Translations under genes and position numbers: made by a program | Notes under the pieces: model-generated | Seen by the model: the letters and a program-made list of their open reading frames with translations, nothing else | Told to the model about the DNA's origin: nothing | Database searches by the model: none | Shown: positions 39,753-48,517 of the stretch, piece after piece | Layout: each line of letters starts with the position of its first letter | Position numbering within the stretch: the first letter of the stretch is position 1 | NCBI GenBank assembly: GCA_000002435.2 | Contig: CM018792.1 | Strand: one strand, 5' to 3' | DNA from: Giardia intestinalis | Lineage: Eukaryota | DNA length: 64,000 nt

Positions 39753-41393
39753 TCATTTCAGGTCAGCGAAAAACGCCTGCCGCCTAGCTTTCACCTTGTT
39801 ACGGTCAAACGTATTGTTCTGTATTGTTGTTTTCAGCGAGGGCTCGGGAGCTGAAGCCTTAACCTTGTTAAAGAATTGCGCCATCTCGCTGTCTGTTGTG
39901 GACGATTCATCCTTTGGAAGTTCATCATCTCTTAGGGGTGCCTCTAGCACACCCTTTAACGGTATTGGGCCACCGTCTGAAGAATCCGAGCAATCTGGGT
40001 TTTGGGGAATTCCATCTCGTATTGGTGTAGTGGAATCATTGCGATCATCGGAGGTGTCTGTAGACGGAGCTCGGACGTACTTGTGACGAGATTCCTCGTC
40101 GAGAAGATCTATCTCTTCCGAATCTGAGCATTGCTCATCCTCACTAATTGGACCCGGGTCTTCTTGCTTCTCAACCAAATCGTACACCCACTTGGCATCC
40201 ATCATGTAGAAAACATCACTGAAGTGCTCTGCAATAGTCAGCAGGCTCTTATCTTCCGATAGCTCCATAACAGATACTGCTCCTTTGAACTCGCTACAAA
40301 ATACCCCATAGTGTATGGGTGGGTACAAACCAACAAGATGCACCACCCCGTCACTAGCCCCCAACAAGTAGTAGTTCCGGTACAACCGTATGACACTCTC
40401 TATGCTCTCCGATGTCGTCCTCAACTTATTCACTGGGAGACCGATGTCTAGCACCGAGAACAACAGGACACTGCCTTCAGATGTACCGCAATAGATATAG
40501 CGCTCGTTTGGGTCCATTATCATGCATGTCAAGCTAAATTCCTCGGGGGATGAGTTGTCCTTCAACCGAAAGACGGGATACTGCTGCTTTCTGCTCATTT
40601 TTCGAACCAATGATGAACGGTCATTGTGATCACCGTTCAGGATGTCGATGTCCTGACTAGGGTCTTGGTCTGCACCTCTTTTAGACTTGCTATTGTTCTT
40701 ACCCTTCCCGATCTCATAACAGTACAGCGTGCCGTCAGCTGACGACGCATATAGCTTGGACTGAAACTCTGACCATGCAAAGCCAGTAATGTAGTCCCCC
40801 GCGTCGCCCAACGACTGTAGTATCTTCAGGTCGGAGTAGTTGTTGCACACATTAATAATATGCACATAGCCCTCATCATCGCCGGCAGCGAGGTACAGAT
40901 GCTCCAGATAGACGAAGACCTCGAGGCAGGAGATGGGATGCTTACAAAGCCTCTTCTTCATTAGAATAACCTCAAAGGTGCATGCGGAAATGGGATCATC
41001 GCGTCCTCTGAAATCGGTTGCAGTGGTAGCAGTGGCAACAAGCTTCTCTGCACACTCTTCTATGTCGCTGGTCCCTACTATTTGAGTGATACTGATGCCT
41101 CCTCCGCTGTCAGTGGAGATCAGCGTCACATCATCCAGCCATTTCAGAGCCCGTATGGCGTCATTATTAGCCTTACAGGATAAGAGAAGCTGTGTTCCTG
41201 GAAAGTACTTGTTATAGTAGTCAAATTCATCTTCGTCGAACGAAATGCTCGACGAAATCTCCTCACCTGGGACGATCTGCCGTATGAAAATACTTCCAAA
41301 CGCTGTTCCGTAGGCAAAGATCTGAGAATTAGAGGAGTAGACCATGGCGGTTATGGTTCCCTCTACCTGTTGTGCCAATAGTTTCTCAGCCAT
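39753..41393 (-). CDS. WD40/beta-propeller-like protein (546 aa)
   Basis: True ATG at 41391-41393. It contains repeated motifs of the form hydrophobic-x-S/G-D-G-x-h-x-h, such as LLGASDGVVHLVGL, YASSADGTLYCYEI and LAAGDDEGYVHIINV, separated by about 40-60 aa. The C-terminus is acidic. Confidence 0.45.
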   Translation of the reverse strand: MAEKLLAQQVEGTITAMVYSSNSQIFAYGTAFGSIFIRQIVPGEEISSSISFDEDEFDYYNKYFPGTQLLLSCKANNDAIRALKWLDDVTLISTDSGGGISITQIVGTSDIEECAEKLVATATTATDFRGRDDPISACTFEVILMKKRLCKHPISCLEVFVYLEHLYLAAGDDEGYVHIINVCNNYSDLKILQSLGDAGDYITGFAWSEFQSKLYASSADGTLYCYEIGKGKNNSKSKRGADQDPSQDIDILNGDHNDRSSLVRKMSRKQQYPVFRLKDNSSPEEFSLTCMIMDPNERYIYCGTSEGSVLLFSVLDIGLPVNKLRTTSESIESVIRLYRNYYLLGASDGVVHLVGLYPPIHYGVFCSEFKGAVSVMELSEDKSLLTIAEHFSDVFYMMDAKWVYDLVEKQEDPGPISEDEQCSDSEEIDLLDEESRHKYVRAPSTDTSDDRNDSTTPIRDGIPQNPDCSDSSDGGPIPLKGVLEAPLRDDELPKDESSTTDSEMAQFFNKVKASAPEPSLKTTIQNNTFDRNKVKARRQAFFADLK

Positions 41394-41653
41394 GTCAGGC
41401 TACTTATGTGTTATGCGGTGTTGTGCGTGATTAACAACAGTAAGCAATTGGAAATTAAAATTGAATTTAGCATTACATTGCATTTTGCAATAAAATTAGA
41501 AATCGAAGGCCGCTCAACCGTCGAGAACGATAAGGAGCACGCCGGTGAAGCCAGTACTTTCGCCAAAAACTCGACGGGAGAAGTAATGTGTTTATTTTTG
41601 TCAGACTATTTTTTGATAGCACAATCAGTGGCTAAGTAGTCACAGGAAAAAAA

Positions 41654-42601
41654 ATGCCAAAGATTAATGAACTCGAGTGGAACACCGCCCTAGCATTCGC
41701 CAACGTTGACGTAGACCAAGTTGCAAAGGCCGATGCCAACAACATCTTTAAGCTCACTCAGGAGATTGAGGCACTCGTCAAAGAGGACAACGCGAGCTTG
41801 GCCAAATTCAAGATCAAGGAGGTTGGGAACCTGAAGGACCGCACGGCCGTCCTAAATATGGTGAAGATGTATCTCTCTACAGTCAAGCAGGGGCTTTCGT
41901 CCATCAAAAAGTTCACCGAGAAGGAGCTTAACGAGCAGCTCATCGTCGCCATGCAGTCAATCATCCTTGCGTCCAGATCTCTTCCTTGCGAGAAGCTTCA
42001 CCCAGTAGTCAAGCTGTTCGGGTCCATCTATGGCAAAAAGTTCATTGACCAGGCCCTCAGACTACCCTCGTCCGATCAGGCTGGCGGAAAGGATGCAAAC
42101 CCCAAAGATCCTCTAACAAAGGCTGATGACCAGCTCCGGTTCCTTCTCTTCCAGAACGAGCTGACGTCGGAGAGGGTCGATTTGGAGTACAACAAGATAC
42201 GGATGCGTGTTATGAAAATCCCGCGACAGCAGGTGCCTGCTCCCGTCCCAGTGGCCTCCGGACCATCCGGGGCAGGGCCTATCGATTCTCTGATGCCCAG
42301 CAGCGGCGGCGGCGATGCCTTCAATGGCAATGGTGGCGATGCCGGCAATATGGATTCTGACGGAGGTATGCCATCCCTTCTCCCCATCCCTGTATCCAAT
42401 GACGACTACAATGAAACGTGTTTCCCTCCTGTTAATAATAACGTGGACGATCCGTTTCCCACAAGGGATATCTGTCAGATAGACAACAAATCAGATGCAT
42501 TCAGTGCTGGGCCTGCTAACCCAGACCCCTCTCCAGATGACAAGCCCCTAACAATGGACTCCTCCATCCAGGACATGCTCAGAAAGCTGAACAACTACTG
42601 A
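41654..42601 (+). CDS. Hypothetical protein, possibly IST1-like (ESCRT-III-related), 315 aa
   Basis: True ATG at 41654. The block LIVAMQSIILASRSLP.CEKLHPVVKLFGSIYGKKFIDQA resembles the IST1 core ESVSTLIWAAPRLQSEVAELKIVADQLCAKYSKEYGK. The tail is Pro/Gly-rich, with a C-terminal DSSIQDMLRKLNNY. This is a weak call. Confidence 0.25.
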   Translation: MPKINELEWNTALAFANVDVDQVAKADANNIFKLTQEIEALVKEDNASLAKFKIKEVGNLKDRTAVLNMVKMYLSTVKQGLSSIKKFTEKELNEQLIVAMQSIILASRSLPCEKLHPVVKLFGSIYGKKFIDQALRLPSSDQAGGKDANPKDPLTKADDQLRFLLFQNELTSERVDLEYNKIRMRVMKIPRQQVPAPVPVASGPSGAGPIDSLMPSSGGGDAFNGNGGDAGNMDSDGGMPSLLPIPVSNDDYNETCFPPVNNNVDDPFPTRDICQIDNKSDAFSAGPANPDPSPDDKPLTMDSSIQDMLRKLNNY

Positions 42602-42643
42602 TCTCTTCGTTTTATTAGGTAAATTGATTGATTTTTTTGGCCC

Positions 42644-42763
42644 AAAATTCAAAAATTCAAAAATTTGGAAATTCAAAAATTCAAAAATTCAAAAATTTGG
42701 AAATTCAAAAATTTGGAAATTTGGAAATTTGGAAATTCAAAAATTTGGAAATTTGGAAATTTG
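42644..42763. repeat. Degenerate tandem repeat of fifteen 8-bp units (AAAAATTC / AAATTTGG) ending 24 bp upstream of the CDC48 ATG
   Basis: The sequence is aaaattc aaaaattc aaaaatttgg aaattc aaaaattc aaaaattc aaaaatttgg aaattc aaaaatttgg aaatttgg aaatttgg aaattc aaaaatttgg aaatttgg aaatttgag. It is pure A/T tracts punctuated by C or GG. Confidence 0.85.
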
Positions 42764-42786
42764 AGCCAGATAAAAAAACAAGCCTC

Positions 42787-45399
42787 ATGGACAACAAGAG
42801 CATCTGCTCCAAGTTCAACAACAGGTTCATAGTGAACGACAATCCGGGAGGCGATGATTCACAGATAATTTTGAGCTCGGAGAAGGTCAACGTTTTGGAC
42901 CTCTTCCAGGGAGACTACGTGCGGCTTAAGGGGCGCTTTGGGAAAACCACCCACGCTATGGTCCAGTCGAGGGAGGATGTTGACAAGATAGTGGTTCTGA
43001 TGAACAAAACCATGCGTGCCAATCTGGGGGTCAATCTCGGCGATATCGTCATCCTGTACCCTGCCCAAAACCTTCCTTATCACAAGCGCATCAAGGTGAT
43101 ACCCTTCGAGCAGGATCTCGAGGGGCTCAATATTGCAGGATATACTGTGAAGCAGGGCGAGGACGGCAAGCCTGCCCCGGCGCCCTTCCCCGGTCCCACG
43201 TACGACCTGTTTGACATTTGCATTGCGCCATACTTCAAGGACAAGTGCCGCCCCGTTACTGAGGGTAATACGTTTAAAGTCATGACGACTAGCTTGCCCG
43301 TAAACCGCGAGATAGAGTTTAAGGTGGTTCTTACAGACCCCTCTCCAGCGTGCATCGTCATGGATGGGGGCGAGATCTTCTATGAGGGCGAGCCCATAGA
43401 TAGAGATGAGCACGAGCGCGAGAATACAAAGGTAGGCTACTCAGACCTTGGAGGCCTCGGGAAGGAGCTGGGAATGATCAGGGAACAAATTGAGCTTCCT
43501 CTACGCCACCCAGAGCTCTTCAAGTACCTCGGTGTCAAGCCTCCTCGGGGAATTCTTCTCACGGGTCCCCCAGGCTGCGGTAAGACCACTATCGGAAAGG
43601 CCATCGCAAACGAGGCTGGGGCGTACTTCTTTTTACTAAACGGTGCTGAGATCATGTCATCCATGGCTGGCGAGTCCGAGAAGAACCTGCGCAAGGCGTT
43701 CGACATTTGCGAGCAGGAAGCCGAGAAGTCTGCAAAGGAAAATGATGGTGTGGGGTGCGCTATTCTGTTCATTGACGAAATTGACTGTATTGCCGGAAAC
43801 CGTGCCGAGAGCAAGGGCGAGGTTGAGAAGCGTGTCGTTTCCCAGTTGTTGACCCTCATGGATGGGATCAAGCCCCGCTCCAACGTCATCGTCCTCGCTG
43901 CCACGAACAGACCTAATGTCATTGACCCCGCTCTGCGCAGGTTTGGAAGGTTTGACAGAGAGATACAGATAAATGTTCCCGACGAGAACGGGCGTCTGGA
44001 GATCCTCTCCATCCACACCCGCAAGCTAAAGCTCCATCCGGACGGCGTGGATATTGTCCGCATTGCGAATGAGACAAACGGGTACGTCGGTGCTGACTTG
44101 GCCCAGATATGCACGGAAGCTGCGATGATGTGCGTCCGTGAATCTATGGAGATGGTGCTAGATATGGAGAGTGAGGAGAAGCTGACCGATGAGCAGCTCA
44201 ATAAGATCTTCATCACTGATAGCCACTTTACGGCTGCAATTTCGAAGGTCACACCGAGTACGCTTCGCGAGACCGTTATTGAGATGCCCACAGTCACCTG
44301 GGATGACATTGGCGGTCTTGAGCACACAAAGAGAGAGCTCATCGAGCTTATTCAATATCCCATCCGCTATAAGGAGAAGTATCAACAGATGGGCATCGAG
44401 CCTTCCCGTGGTGCTCTTCTGTGGGGTCCTCCTGGTACAGGAAAGTCCCTTCTTGCAAAAGCAATTGCCAATGAGTGTGGCTGCAATTATATAAGCATTA
44501 AGGGTCCGGAGCTCTTGTCGAAGTGGGTCGGCGAGTCAGAGCAGAACATTAGGAATATCTTCGACAAGGCCAGGCAGGCTGCCCCGTGCGTCCTCTTCTT
44601 CGATGAGATTGAGTCCATTACCCAACATCGTGGAACGTCTGCTAGCGGAGGCGGAGAGGTCACTGATCGGATGCTCAACCAAATCCTCACGGAGCTCGAC
44701 GGTGTTGGTGTGCGTAAGGACGTCTTTATAATCGGAGCCACAAATAGGCCAGATACGATTGACTCCGCTCTTATGCGTCCCGGCCGTCTTGACACGCTTA
44801 TCTACATCCCGCTACCAGATTATCCGTCGAGAGTTGCCGTCCTCAAGGCACACCTCCGAAAGTCAAAGGTTAACGAAAAGGAGGTTTCTCTTGAGCAGAT
44901 AGCGCAGGTCACGGACGGATACTCCGGTGCAGATCTGGCAGAGATATGCAGCCGCGCCTGCAAGTATTCCATCCGTGAGAATGTCGAGGGCTTTTCAAGG
45001 GCCATGTCGGCCTTTGAATCTATGAAGAAGTCGTGGCTCGATAGCCACGGCGGCGTTCTGACACCGGAAAAGGAGAAGGAGTTTGCTGAGCACGAAGAGA
45101 AGATCTCTGAGCGCTTCTCTGACACGAGCATTTCTGGACGCCACTTCGAACAAGCGATCAGAGAGAGCAGGAAGAGCATCTCTGAGGAGGAGATGAGACG
45201 CTTCGAGGTCTTTAAGCAGAGCTACAGTGGGGGAATTGGCGACGGCCTCGGGTCGATGGGCAACGCAGGCCGCAGAAACGCAAACCCCGCCATCGCGAAC
45301 TTCTCGTTCAAGGTAGATGGTCAGACAGGAGCTCGCCAACAACCCCAGGGCGCTGTCCGATCAAAGGCTGGGGCAGGAAACGAGGCAGATATGTTTTAA
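42787..45399 (+). CDS. CDC48: CDC48/p97/VCP-type AAA+ ATPase (two AAA domains)
   Basis: The track ORF starts at a TTG at 42628 and reads through the A/T repeat. The real start is the ATG at 42787 (MDNKSICSKFNNRFIVNDNPGG…). This aligns with the p97 N-domain (…LFQGDYVRLKGRFGKTTHAMV ~ [21 protein letters not shown]). D1 has Walker A GPPGCGKT and Walker B ILFIDEID. D2 has GPPGTGKS and VLFFDEIES. The segment IPLPDYPSRVAVLKAHLRKS corresponds to [20 protein letters not shown]. An AGTAAAT signal lies at 45412-45418. Confidence 0.95.
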   Translation: MDNKSICSKFNNRFIVNDNPGGDDSQIILSSEKVNVLDLFQGDYVRLKGRFGKTTHAMVQSREDVDKIVVLMNKTMRANLGVNLGDIVILYPAQNLPYHKRIKVIPFEQDLEGLNIAGYTVKQGEDGKPAPAPFPGPTYDLFDICIAPYFKDKCRPVTEGNTFKVMTTSLPVNREIEFKVVLTDPSPACIVMDGGEIFYEGEPIDRDEHERENTKVGYSDLGGLGKELGMIREQIELPLRHPELFKYLGVKPPRGILLTGPPGCGKTTIGKAIANEAGAYFFLLNGAEIMSSMAGESEKNLRKAFDICEQEAEKSAKENDGVGCAILFIDEIDCIAGNRAESKGEVEKRVVSQLLTLMDGIKPRSNVIVLAATNRPNVIDPALRRFGRFDREIQINVPDENGRLEILSIHTRKLKLHPDGVDIVRIANETNGYVGADLAQICTEAAMMCVRESMEMVLDMESEEKLTDEQLNKIFITDSHFTAAISKVTPSTLRETVIEMPTVTWDDIGGLEHTKRELIELIQYPIRYKEKYQQMGIEPSRGALLWGPPGTGKSLLAKAIANECGCNYISIKGPELLSKWVGESEQNIRNIFDKARQAAPCVLFFDEIESITQHRGTSASGGGEVTDRMLNQILTELDGVGVRKDVFIIGATNRPDTIDSALMRPGRLDTLIYIPLPDYPSRVAVLKAHLRKSKVNEKEVSLEQIAQVTDGYSGADLAEICSRACKYSIRENVEGFSRAMSAFESMKKSWLDSHGGVLTPEKEKEFAEHEEKISERFSDTSISGRHFEQAIRESRKSISEEEMRRFEVFKQSYSGGIGDGLGSMGNAGRRNANPAIANFSFKVDGQTGARQQPQGAVRSKAGAGNEADMF

Positions 45400-45411
45400 A
45401 GACGTATCCAA

Positions 45412-45418
45412 GGCCAGT
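45412..45418 (+). terminator. Putative polyadenylation signal AGTAAAT after the CDC48 stop
   Basis: It lies 13 nt after the TAA stop at 45397-45399. Confidence 0.4.
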
Positions 45419-45463
45419 AAATAGGTGTTGGTTTTCTACAGGCCTGCAACGGCAACCAAAAAT

Positions 45464-48400
45464 ATGCTTTTGCTCGGTTTACTCTCCGCGTCCTACCTTT
45501 TTATATTCTACAAGCCTGCTTCCTTCGTTGCCGATGAAACTGCGTTTGCAGATCTACAGAGGATCGGCCAGCAAAGCTGCTTAAACAGCGCTAGTCCATC
45601 CCCCATGCCACAGGGGTTCCAAACCCGGTATGAGAAGGATATCACCGCTGAAGCAGCCAAGTGCCAAAACACATGTCAAGTAAGTGGCGGAGCTCCTTGG
45701 ACTCAGTATAATAATATAAATAACCCCGATCACCTATTATATAATGTTATGTGCATCTATCTAATGGCCCTAGCCTATAAATGCCCTCAGTCCACGCACA
45801 ACTCAGCAGATAGCTATAGGAGCGCGATAGAATACGCAGTAAAGTATCTAGCAGACCACGGACTTCAGACAACATATTTAACTCAAGATACCAATACAAC
45901 TAGGACTCTAATTCTTGCTGTGGAGGTCCCCACTTATATCTCTAAATTTCTTCCATTACTTGTGGAAGCGTCATCCTCTCCATCACAGTCATCTGATATG
46001 CAAACTCACTTGCTGAAGATAACAGAAAACATATTTTCATACGTCCCACAATTCACTGATTTGGCAAGCTGTTCAGCCAGGTCAAATGTGTGGAGTGACC
46101 CGGCCAAGTGCCCATACTCAGGTGTTCAGCTGGAAGCGTTTCTAAATAGTATATTCCTTACTCTAAACAAGTTTATCCAAGATAAAGTCAACACCCTAGG
46201 AAATGCGGAGTCCCTGGCGGCATACTTTCGACAAATGCCTACAAACTACTCCCAAACCAGCAATTATTACGTCGATGGCTACCGACTGGACTCGTCCATA
46301 GATCTGTACTACTCCATGCCAATGCAGGGCAGCACAGCATTTGACATTATCTTAGAGACTCTGCGTGCTGTGGAATACTTTGGGTCTGAGGAGAACGAGT
46401 GCGGCTCACGAATATTGGCGACGCTTTACTCTTTCTTCAATCACTCCATTCTTCCATACATGCAGCAATGCAGGCTCTCCGATGCCATTGCCGGTGCACT
46501 GGTGGTCGACGGAGTTCTTGATGGGCATGCTCGCCACGAGATCGCCATAGCGTTGTTTGCTCACATGCACGTACTAGCTGTTTCTAAGGGGTACATACCC
46601 AATTCATTGCCTGAAAATGTAACTGCTCTACTGAATGCGTTCTCGTACCAGGCCAATCAGTGTTTTTCAGCATCTTCTGCAAAGCTTCCCGCTAAATTTG
46701 CATATGGATGTCATTGTGCACTTAGTTTACTTGGGATCAATGCCGTCGCACATTATCATGCAGACGACTTGAAATCAAAGCGGACAGGGGTCCTCTGGCA
46801 GCCGTATGCTGACACTATTTCGATAGTGACCAAGGATCTCGACATCGTGTACGCGATGAGCTCTTACAAAACAGCATACTACAATTGTATTAACAACACA
46901 AATCGTCGTGGGTGGTATCAGAGGGCAGGACACCAATACGTTTATCCAAAAGAGCATCCTAACAAGTACATTAATTATTATCCCTCAATGGAGACCTTTG
47001 CATATCAGGGCGTTGTTGCAGCCAGGGCGCAACTTAAGGATTGTCAGTACCAAAATAACAAGGCAAGTGATAAGCGTGGGTCTACCAACGCCGGATTGGT
47101 TACCGTTGATACTGATGCAGCAATCGTCTACGAGCACATCCATCCTGATACCCGCAATGCATACTTAAAGCTCTTCTACCTTGAGGAGGCGGCAAACGCG
47201 GACGTGAAGAACACTTTCAGCAACAATGTCGCCATTCATACTCTTCTACTCTCCAATATGACTGCAGCTAATCCGTCTACCCAAATACATGATAACATAC
47301 TCGCAATCCCTCTTGGCAGCACAAAGGCTGTCGTTAGTGTGTTCTCTCTCGCAGGACAAAGAGTAGACACAGCCCCTGGAGACGATTGGACAAACACGGA
47401 CAGCGTGAAGTATGCATACGTCAAACTATCGTTTCCAGCCGATCAAGGGGCAGCTGACCAAAGCCCCACGCCCTCGCGTGGCCCAGAGGCCACATCCTAT
47501 GTCACAGGGGTGTGCTTCCATGCCTTCAGTGGGCCAGTAAAGGGACGCATCAAAGAGCTATCAGGGAGCTATGCTGAGCAAGGAGGTGTCTTACCACCAG
47601 ATTCTTCATCAAGTAATGTAAGGCAATACTTTTTGCAACTTCGGATGCGAGTTATGCCGGGCACGGAGTCCTCAAGTAAGTTAGCAATCTACACGTACTT
47701 TCCACGGCTCAGCTCCAGTGTTACAGAGACCGAGTTCAACAAGCTGTGTTCACAGTACAATGGCTCAGTATTCATCAATGGGCAACCAAATCCATCAAGC
47801 TACACATATCAGCAGATCGAGAACGTGCACTTTATCGTTGGAAAGTCCATTGCAAAGAGATATGTGGAGTTTCACGCCATGGCTTTCCTGAAGCCATCAG
47901 AGAGCGTGTTTTACCGAAATGCCACACTTCAGGCGAAGAGTACCGGATTCGTTGCCTTCAAAGCACGCGAGCGCACGCTGCAAATGTCGCTGGTGGACGT
48001 TACCCAGGACAGGCGAGCCGTGAACATGACCCTCTTTAATCTGTCTATTTACGACTTCCTGGAGACCAGCTGTAATCCCAAGAATGCCGATGATCAGATA
48101 CAGCTCTCTGTTCCAGGAATCAACGCCGTATTCTGCTCATGCAAGATGACCTTCAAGCTTACCTCATCCGAAGAGCATGCGTTATTCATGCATAAGGTGA
48201 CAATTGCCTCTGTGACCGTAACGATTTTAATAGCTATTGCGGTCATCATTACCATAGTTGTTATTTTGATCATGAAGAAGCGGTTAAAAGGCGGAGAGAA
48301 ACGTCTACGAAAGGTCCGTGAGAGGAAACAGATAACTGACGCTCAGATACGCTCAGATGCGGTAATAAAGAAGATGGCCAGGCACAGAGGAGAGAAGGAG

Positions 48401-48517
48401 CCACAGGACAAAACGTATCTGGACAACAATTTCCAGGATTCGTTCAGCGCTGATAAGATAGCTGACCTGGCAGAGACAATGTTTAGTAGAGGTGGCTTGG
48501 GAGAGAGCTACCTTTGA
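45464..48517 (+). CDS. Hypothetical type I membrane protein (~1017 aa): signal peptide, large ectodomain, one C-terminal TM helix, basic tail
   Basis: The track ORF starts at a GTG at 45425. The first ATG is at 45464 (MLLLGLLSASYLFIFYKPASF, signal-like). The TM helix is VTIASVTVTILIAIAVIITIVVILI, followed by MKKRLKGGEKRLRKVRERKQ. Confidence 0.55.
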   Translation: MLLLGLLSASYLFIFYKPASFVADETAFADLQRIGQQSCLNSASPSPMPQGFQTRYEKDITAEAAKCQNTCQVSGGAPWTQYNNINNPDHLLYNVMCIYLMALAYKCPQSTHNSADSYRSAIEYAVKYLADHGLQTTYLTQDTNTTRTLILAVEVPTYISKFLPLLVEASSSPSQSSDMQTHLLKITENIFSYVPQFTDLASCSARSNVWSDPAKCPYSGVQLEAFLNSIFLTLNKFIQDKVNTLGNAESLAAYFRQMPTNYSQTSNYYVDGYRLDSSIDLYYSMPMQGSTAFDIILETLRAVEYFGSEENECGSRILATLYSFFNHSILPYMQQCRLSDAIAGALVVDGVLDGHARHEIAIALFAHMHVLAVSKGYIPNSLPENVTALLNAFSYQANQCFSASSAKLPAKFAYGCHCALSLLGINAVAHYHADDLKSKRTGVLWQPYADTISIVTKDLDIVYAMSSYKTAYYNCINNTNRRGWYQRAGHQYVYPKEHPNKYINYYPSMETFAYQGVVAARAQLKDCQYQNNKASDKRGSTNAGLVTVDTDAAIVYEHIHPDTRNAYLKLFYLEEAANADVKNTFSNNVAIHTLLLSNMTAANPSTQIHDNILAIPLGSTKAVVSVFSLAGQRVDTAPGDDWTNTDSVKYAYVKLSFPADQGAADQSPTPSRGPEATSYVTGVCFHAFSGPVKGRIKELSGSYAEQGGVLPPDSSSSNVRQYFLQLRMRVMPGTESSSKLAIYTYFPRLSSSVTETEFNKLCSQYNGSVFINGQPNPSSYTYQQIENVHFIVGKSIAKRYVEFHAMAFLKPSESVFYRNATLQAKSTGFVAFKARERTLQMSLVDVTQDRRAVNMTLFNLSIYDFLETSCNPKNADDQIQLSVPGINAVFCSCKMTFKLTSSEEHALFMHKVTIASVTVTILIAIAVIITIVVILIMKKRLKGGEKRLRKVRERKQITDAQIRSDAVIKKMARHRGEKEPQDKTYLDNNFQDSFSADKIADLAETMFSRGGLGESYL

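Follow-up and report, generated by a model that had tools for sequence, protein, structure and literature searches.

Introduction

The core promoters of Giardia are the closest described counterparts of the locus analyzed here (Holberton and Marshall, 1995; Elmendorf, 2001; Teodorovic, 2007, PMC1885649; Tolba, 2013, PMC3792122). An AT-rich initiator is placed proximally, at the start site itself, and some 30 bp upstream lies a distal, TATA-like element that is likewise AT-rich. The sequences of both are loosely defined: AT-richness affects promoter strength, any AT-rich patch may hold several starts, and transcription is often bidirectional (PMC1885649). These promoters are only 50–60 bp long (PMC12209930). 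Sequencing of transcription start sites (TSSs) in WB yielded an 11-nt A/T-rich consensus centered on the start and with an A at its center, the frequent variants of which include AATTCAAAAAA, AATTTAAAAAT, and ATTTCAAAAAA (PMC3792122).

Bacterial phase-variable promoters carry di- or polynucleotide tracts between −35 and −10, in which slippage changes the repeat number inside the promoter and alters the spacing of two fixed elements, while kinetoplast-minicircle-type bent DNA is characterized by short A/T tracts phased at about 10.5 bp. Variable-number tandem repeats (VNTRs) are also found in human promoters, such as those of INS and MAOA, and unstable promoter repeats in yeast were reportedly described by Vinces et al. 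in 2009. In the yeast and human promoter VNTRs, copy number measurably alters expression or nucleosome positioning.

Described Giardia promoters contain one or two AT-rich patches within 50–60 bp, whereas the distal patch of the WB CDC48 promoter extends over 120 bp and holds 15 units with seven consensus initiators. The array resembles the yeast and human promoter VNTRs in having short promoter units arranged head to tail, in a copy number that varies between close relatives, and in a probable growth by slippage or unequal exchange, which its nested 8-, 16-, and 32-bp duplications suggest. However, published CDC48 mRNA levels are equal at about 3, 4, and 15 units. Slippage inside a promoter is likewise shared with the bacterial phase-variable repeats, but the WB array adds its units upstream and leaves the spacing between the proximal element and the ATG unchanged. 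The likeness to kinetoplast-type DNA is confined to short A/T tracts at a fixed period, which in the WB array is 8 bp (16 bp at the higher order), and the modeled axis is essentially straight. A literature search found no description of this repeat or of tandem repeats in Giardia promoters. We propose that the array probably arose in the WB/AI lineage by a recent, near-neutral VNTR expansion, in which the AT-rich distal element in the core promoter of CDC48 was multiplied.

Location and architecture of the array

The window, a stretch of 64,000 nucleotides of the Giardia intestinalis genome, contains on its plus strand an Ist1-like (ESCRT-III associated) gene at 41654–42601 (GL50803_11129, also GL50803_0011129, XP_001704688; 315 aa; Pfam Ist1), which is followed by the coding sequence of a CDC48/p97-type AAA ATPase at 42787–45399 (GL50803_16867, XP_001704687; 870 aa; ATG start). 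The preliminary description had named the downstream gene as CDC48, and its identity as the CDC48-type ATPase of Giardia (here WB C6) is borne out by its Pfam domains (CDC48_N, two AAA, and two AAA_lid_3) and by exact-sequence look-up, which returned the protein records of Giardia intestinalis WB clone C6 labeled "hypothetical protein" for XP_001704688 and "AAA family ATPase" for XP_001704687. GL50803_16867 is also the name of the CDC48 ATPase in a published table (PMC9014877 Table S1).

The spacer between the two genes is 185 nt long and contains no ATG on either strand. Its length is equal in the 2007 WB assembly (CH991764), as derived from the gene coordinates in a table published in 2013 (PMC3610916 Table S1), and since the two WB assemblies agree, the array is not an assembly artefact. 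Direct reading and Tandem Repeats Finder (TRF) place a tandem array of 15 octamers at 42645–42764 on the plus strand, the 3′ end of which lies 23 nt before the CDC48 ATG (42787). It is the most AT-rich 120 bp within the 64 kb, with a GC content of 18.3% against a mean of 49.3% (SD 6.8).

Read in one register from 42645, the array is built of two octamers, AAATTCAA (C) and AAATTTGG (G), which follow one another as C C G C C C G C G G G C G G G′; the final unit, G′, is AAATTTGA, giving 14 full units and one variant. The composition of octamers and the block order CCG/CCCG/CGGG/CGG+G′ that had been reported for 42644–42763 were confirmed by this reading. While the order of the two octamers stood, one of the units named at that time, AAAAATTC, did not: it represents the C unit read two bases out of register, and behind a G unit this reading fails, GGAAATTC standing there instead. 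The array is parsed most simply as two 32-bp tandem duplications, CCGC ×2 and GGGC ×2. The first, at 42645–42708, is perfect, its copies (42645–42676 and 42677–42708; units 1–4 and 5–8) being exactly identical; the second, at 42709–42764, consists of GGGC at 42709–42740 followed by a shortened GGG′ at 42741–42764, with 23 of 24 bases matching between units 9–11 and units 13–15. TRF called period 8 with scores of 99 and 101, and its best-scoring call had a period of 16 (score 160, 85% matches), so that the 15 units are head-to-tail copies of a short unit free of indels, as is typical of a VNTR.

The 16-mer AAATTCAAAAATTTGG occurs four times in the 64-kb window, in each case within the array, against 0.03 occurrences expected from shuffles. 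As for a generic satellite, the array was found at a single locus within the window, and a search of JGI metagenomes with a 22-mer from the array gave eight unrelated single-copy matches and no arrays. No Rfam family matched anywhere in the window. A scan for bacterial promoters and terminators was set aside as irrelevant to a eukaryote.

Elsewhere in the window, three tandem copies of a 620–635-aa ORF, about 1914 bp apart, occupy 240–5933 on the minus strand, and small TRF repeats in this region recur at the same 1914-bp spacing. A further ORF of 635 aa lies at 7777–9684, and a common TCACCCATTA repeat is present at 189 and 7726. These ORFs are probably clustered tandem members of a gene family of the surface-protein type.

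Predicted promoter elements in the array and spacer

A position weight matrix (PWM) was built from Table 3 of PMC3792122, using only the 17 most frequent consensus variants. It gave matches of about 3–14 bits at 3–40 nt upstream of many other ORFs of the window, indicating that the matrix behaves sensibly. At the C-unit junctions of the array, between 42646 and 42744 on the plus strand, the matrix detected seven copies of AATTCAAAAAT (starts at 42646, 42654, 42670, 42678, 42686, 42702, and 42734), each of which scored 14.1 bits; together they make up seven of the ten best sites among about 128,000 positions in the window. All seven are on the CDC48 strand, and the transcription starts predicted from them would precede the ATG by 136 to 48 nt. 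AATTCAAAAAT differs by one base from the TSS-consensus variants AATTCAAAAAA and AATTTAAAAAT (PMC3792122), and each C-unit junction is a near-consensus Giardia transcription-start motif. In addition, CAAAAATT matches the first eight bases of the Giardia upstream motif CAAAAA(A/T)(T/C)... quoted in the same study (PMC3792122).

Between the array and the ATG, a proximal A-rich initiator-like element, CAGATAAAAAA, was identified at 42767–42777 on the plus strand. It scored 4.8 bits, which places it in the top 0.11% of positions, and it is conserved. A transcript starting at this element would carry a 5′ UTR some 15 nt long.

The best initiator-consensus match outside the array is AAATTAAAATT (15.7 bits) at 41452. 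This site is located in the divergent promoter region 41394–41653, between a WD40 gene on the minus strand and the Ist1-like gene, where gene callers also call a conserved ORF of 77 aa (2753–2986 of contig L004).

Conservation and length variation across lineages

Homologs of the Ist1-like protein were retrieved, and the contigs encoding them were read for the spacer before CDC48. The gene order WD40, Ist1, CDC48, and Lyase_8-domain gene is kept throughout the lineages compared. The last of these genes, directly 3′ of CDC48 at 45425–48517 on the plus strand (1017–1030 aa), has a Pfam match to the polysaccharide lyase family 8 super-sandwich domain (Lyase_8, E = 8e-10), which is an unusual annotation for Giardia, and it is syntenic in all lineages.

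The array comprises 15 units in WB (AI), both in this window and in the 2007 assembly. The assemblage AII (A2) sequence of DH (NCBI AHGT01000001; contig L011) carries four, C C G G′. Four units were also found in an ENA assembly (L023), the spacer of which equals that of DH but for one SNP and which is represented by eight unbroken contigs with this Ist1 variant; in an ENA metagenome scaffold (L024) with a spacer identical to that of DH; and in a Logan contig (L034) with a 4-unit spacer as in DH. Assemblage E (P15; contig L006) has four imperfect units, AAATTCAA AAATCCAA AAATTTAG AAGTTTGA, and about three degenerate units are present in assemblage B (GS_B and other contigs) and in each of two further lineages (L008 and L025), the Ist1 proteins of which are 76–77% identical. 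The DH allele contains 41 31-mers that are absent from WB, and it is therefore a distinct allele rather than a collapsed copy or a graph shortcut. The array had been suspected to be length-polymorphic between isolates, and the difference at one and the same locus between the 15 units of WB and the four of the A2-type assemblies (DH, L023, L024, and L034) upholds this, as well as the designation of the array as a VNTR.

In every non-WB lineage compared, the octamers number only three to four and lie at −57 to −25. The alignment of nine promoters, from at least five lineages, contains as conserved blocks a poly(A) signal, the first C-like unit, the G-like units, and (G)ATAAAAA before the ATG. 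Core octamers and (G)ATAAAAA are thus common to all nine. Lineages A, E, and B share the GATAAAAA core at about −15 (−18 to −11), and ATAAAAA is present in all nine promoters. Initiator-like sites recur across the orthologous promoters at the conserved offsets −48, −40, −32, and about −15. The site at −32 is a perfect AATTTAAAAAT in assemblage B and in the L008 lineage and a AATCTAAAAAT variant in L025; given the consensus initiator in B and L008, the G unit of assemblage A is a derived version of such an initiator.

In WB, the four 3′-most units are located at −55 to −24 and the other 11 units at −143 to −56. The C G G G′ at the 3′ end is the counterpart of C C G G′, the ancestral block seen in A2 and E isolates; it and the proximal element are still as far from the ATG as in the ancestral promoter, with the extra units all lying upstream. 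The 15-unit array is, by comparison of the orthologous spacers, a lineage-specific (WB/A1) expansion of an old element of three to four units. The 3–4-unit core and GATAAAAA occupy the positions published for Giardia core promoters (Holberton and Marshall, 1995; Elmendorf, 2001; Teodorovic, 2007, PMC1885649; Tolba, 2013, PMC3792122). Three properties looked for in a Giardia AT-rich core promoter, a match to the TSS consensus, a location at the published positions, and conservation in orthologous promoters, were found here, which agrees with the earlier idea of an expanded promoter element: the core is conserved in every lineage, and its units match the start consensus.

A T-run upstream of the array, at 42632–42638, is T7 in WB and in WB-like Logan contigs; at the same position it is T6 in DH, L023, and L024 and TTTTTC in L034, so that the T-run variants co-vary with the short and long array alleles. 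On the L024 scaffold (DERR23-1), the gene at 1501–2367, which adjoins the 4-unit promoter, is an assemblage-A-like Ist1 allele of 288 aa, compared with 315 aa in WB, with 91% identity over the full query. Its length implies a putative internal deletion in the low-complexity C-terminal half of the protein.

Copy number among WB-like isolates

Copy numbers in WB-like isolates, taken as those with an Ist1 protein identical to that of WB, were read from Logan contigs assembled at k = 31. Most of these contigs stop inside the array, and L005 stands for 21 of the 23. L004 and one similar contig cross the array with seven units, C C G C G G G′. The first 32-bp duplication of WB (42645–42708) is absent from the path of both L004 and L005. 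The 7-unit array of L004 was downgraded as proof of polymorphism within AI, all of its 31-mers being present in the WB array as well, and part of the apparent within-AI polymorphism could be an artefact of the k = 31 graph.

In a unitig simulation, the WB allele was predicted to break at "C C G aaatt", while L005 ends in "C C G C G aaattt". The latter is the break expected for an allele of the form CCGC-(GGGC)n-GGG′ with n ≥ 2, that is, one of at least 11 units without the first duplication of WB. A true 7-unit allele assembled unbroken in the same simulation. The data suggest a series of 4, 7, at least 11, and 15 units among isolates, in which the values of 7 and at least 11 come from k = 31 contigs and are uncertain.

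Repeat length and CDC48 expression

Expression values were taken from strand-specific RNA-seq of axenic trophozoites, published as FPKM for four-way orthologs (PMC3610916 Table S1). CDC48 (GL50803_16867) has values of 331.8 in WB, 339.2 in AS175, 341.9 in P15, and 297.7 in GS (PMC3610916). Its mRNA level is thus flat across WB (15 units), P15 (4 units), and GS (about 3 units), a comparison made in one growth condition and confounded by lineage. AS175 was rejected as a 4-unit comparator, its genome being a read-mapping consensus on WB (PMC4570179), from which its 184-nt spacer may be inherited.

It had been suggested that repeat length modulates the expression of CDC48, and a fuller form of this explanation would have copy number set the strength of the CDC48 promoter or its choice of start site, with the variation among isolates being functional or adaptive. 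Several observations are in keeping with it: extra AT-rich sequence raises the strength of Giardia promoters and any AT-rich patch can initiate (PMC1885649), six consensus start motifs in sense orientation come with the extra units, copy number varies between close relatives, and long leaders from a spacer devoid of ATGs would carry no upstream ORF. However, an expression-modulating repeat is one in which the level depends on the number of units, and the lineage-confounded FPKM values of this single condition are essentially identical (332 in WB, 342 in P15, and 298 in GS) and lend the suggestion no support; moreover, over the 57 bp next to the ATG the expansion has left the promoter nearly unaltered. 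A tuning role of the repeat therefore appears rather unlikely, and the near-neutral expansion of a promoter element is preferred.

DNA structure of the array

Another explanation is structural, in which phased A/T tracts would produce curvature or a nucleosome-free or easily melted region, independently of sequence-specific initiation. The extreme AT-richness of the array and its short A5/A3–T2/T3 tracts speak for such an element. Intrinsic bending, which the preliminary description had also raised, was assessed with a dinucleotide wedge model, the parameters of which were checked on a positive control whose A-tracts recur every 10.5 bp. The ratio of end-to-end distance to contour length was 0.94 for the array, with a net bend of 13 degrees, less than that of 88% of genomic 120-mers, whereas the ratio collapsed to 0.34 in the positive control. 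Little net curvature is to be expected of the array because its 8-bp period is out of helical phase, successive bends being about a quarter turn apart. Bent DNA is marked by A-tracts phased at about 10–11 bp and by net curvature, and in the wedge model the array has neither, so bending is not supported. Folding of the array as single-stranded DNA was also ordinary, no better than that of shuffles (z = −0.28), and CDC48 expression does not differ between the lineages. Taken with these results, a structural role is improbable, and the sequence of the units is better read as that of a reiterated promoter element.

The upstream gene and the open frame through the array

The enlarged AT-rich tract might also fire bidirectionally and produce antisense RNA over the Ist1-like gene, lowering the expression of the latter in WB. 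Distal AT-rich elements of Giardia are known to yield antisense transcripts over the upstream ORF (PMC1885649), and the FPKM of the Ist1-like gene (GL50803_11129) is lowest in WB, at 256.7 compared with 353.8 in AS175, 368.1 in P15, and 479.5 in GS (PMC3610916). Nevertheless, the difference is less than 2-fold and is confounded by lineage, and the minus strand of the spacer contains no match to the initiator matrix of 8 bits or more. We regard an antisense effect as very improbable and retain the expansion of a sense-oriented promoter element as the explanation of the array.

The 3′ end of the Ist1-like mRNA falls short of the array. A poly(A)-signal-like AGGTAAAT and the cleavage site (about 42629–42630) lie within 42617–42630 on the plus strand, as located by conservation and published 3′ UTR lengths. 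The mapped 3′ UTR of GL50803_11129 is 28 nt in one study (PMC9014877 Table S1) and 29 nt in four isolates in another (PMC3610916 Table S1). Cleavage occurs 11–12 nt past the conserved (A)GTAAAT signal (42617–42624), and the AGURAA signal is 13–15 nt ahead of the cleavage site. The GTAAATTG of this signal is invariant across all nine aligned promoters, and the variant AGTAAAT is found in assemblage B and in the L008 and L025 lineages. With a 3′ UTR of 28–29 nt, the Ist1-like mRNA ends about 15 nt short of the array, which consequently lies outside it; the array, for which a UTR role had been considered at the outset, is not a UTR element of the upstream gene.

The TTG-started N-terminal extension of the CDC48 frame, at 42628–42786 on the plus strand, is open through the array. 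Allele lengths differ by 88 bp between 15 and 4 units and by 24 bp between 7 and 4 units. As 88 bp is not a multiple of 3, the frame is broken between alleles. The MDNKSIC start and the ATG context of CDC48 are conserved in all lineages compared, and the CDC48_N domain begins at residue 14 of the ATG-started protein. A protein-coding segment keeps its frame and peptide among orthologs, and the sequence 5′ of the CDC48 ATG keeps neither, which confirms the earlier opinion that the TTG-started frame is an artefact. That the array belongs to a gene product, either as an N-terminal extension of CDC48 from the TTG at 42628, a frame that does run across the array into CDC48 and that one gene caller rendered as an 884-aa product on a 7-unit contig, or as a 3′ UTR element of the Ist1-like gene, is hardly credible and is refuted as far as sequence comparison goes by the frame-shifting 88-bp allele difference, the conserved ATG start with its adjacent CDC48_N domain, and the end of the mapped Ist1 3′ UTR before the array.

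Two groups of Logan contigs touch these genes. Two 2.64-kb contigs (L002 and L003, from SRR3568108 and SRR3568098) correspond to 42787–45432 of the window and carry no ORF other than that of CDC48; the ATG is their very first codon, and their 3′ ends lie 28–33 nt past the stop codon, 5–10 nt past AGTAAAT. They look like RNA-seq transcript assemblies, and their ends match the published 31-nt 3′ UTR of CDC48. Their use as evidence for the TSS was rejected, since a look-up by the exact 870-aa product biases the set toward contigs starting at the ATG. Another 17 contigs with the WB-type Ist1 gene (L016–L022, from several unrelated runs) correspond to about 39762–42598 and end within about 3 nt of 42595–42598, a shared end just inside the Ist1 stop codon; given their length of about 2.83 kb, the other end lies just inside the stop codon of the divergent WD40 gene. 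An "AGAT" continuation on one of them resembles what we take to be the start of an Illumina adapter.

Origin and significance of the expansion

The alignment of orthologous spacers shows that the ancestral CDC48 promoter consisted of three to four initiator-like octamers, which followed one another at 8-bp intervals from about −57 to −25, together with GATAAAAA at about −15. Judging from the structure of the array, slippage or unequal exchange between the self-similar octamers would have added units on the upstream side. A plausible growth path leads from CCGG′ (4 units) to CCGCGGG′ (7 units), then by duplication of GGGC to 11 units, and by duplication of CCGC to 15 units. The core promoter would have been preserved in this process. 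Since published core promoters fit within about 50–60 bp and the distances of C-G-G-G′ and of the proximal initiator from the ATG are kept, the extra 88 bp is presumably largely redundant. It supplies six additional consensus start motifs facing CDC48, from which minor transcripts may initiate farther upstream, their longer leaders containing no upstream ATG, and the extra units would leave the steady-state level of CDC48 mRNA in cultured trophozoites unaltered. The locus is most likely a near-neutral, length-polymorphic promoter minisatellite rather than a tuned regulator; the mutational path, the position of transcription start, and neutrality under other conditions are what we infer.

A natural multi-initiator promoter, with seven alternative TSSs and WB-specific leaders of 48–136 nt, and with a fast-changing copy number that would make it both a typing marker and a condition-dependent modulator of CDC48, is a doubtful reading by comparison with the near-neutral minisatellite. 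If it were true, CDC48 would be modulated, e.g., in encystation or under stress, where the effect would be hidden from trophozoite RNA-seq.

The array is of modest practical value and opens no long-standing question. Most short-read assemblies of WB-like isolates are interrupted at this locus, where ORF callers also tend to be misled to an N-terminally extended CDC48. The variation of 4, 7, at least 11, and 15 units makes it a candidate PCR-sizeable marker for distinguishing AI from AII and for sub-typing near-identical AI isolates. For the biology of Giardia, the array offers a natural example in which minimal AT-rich promoter elements have been reiterated without a change in mRNA output, and this unchanged output fits the view that the proximal 50–60 bp alone matter.
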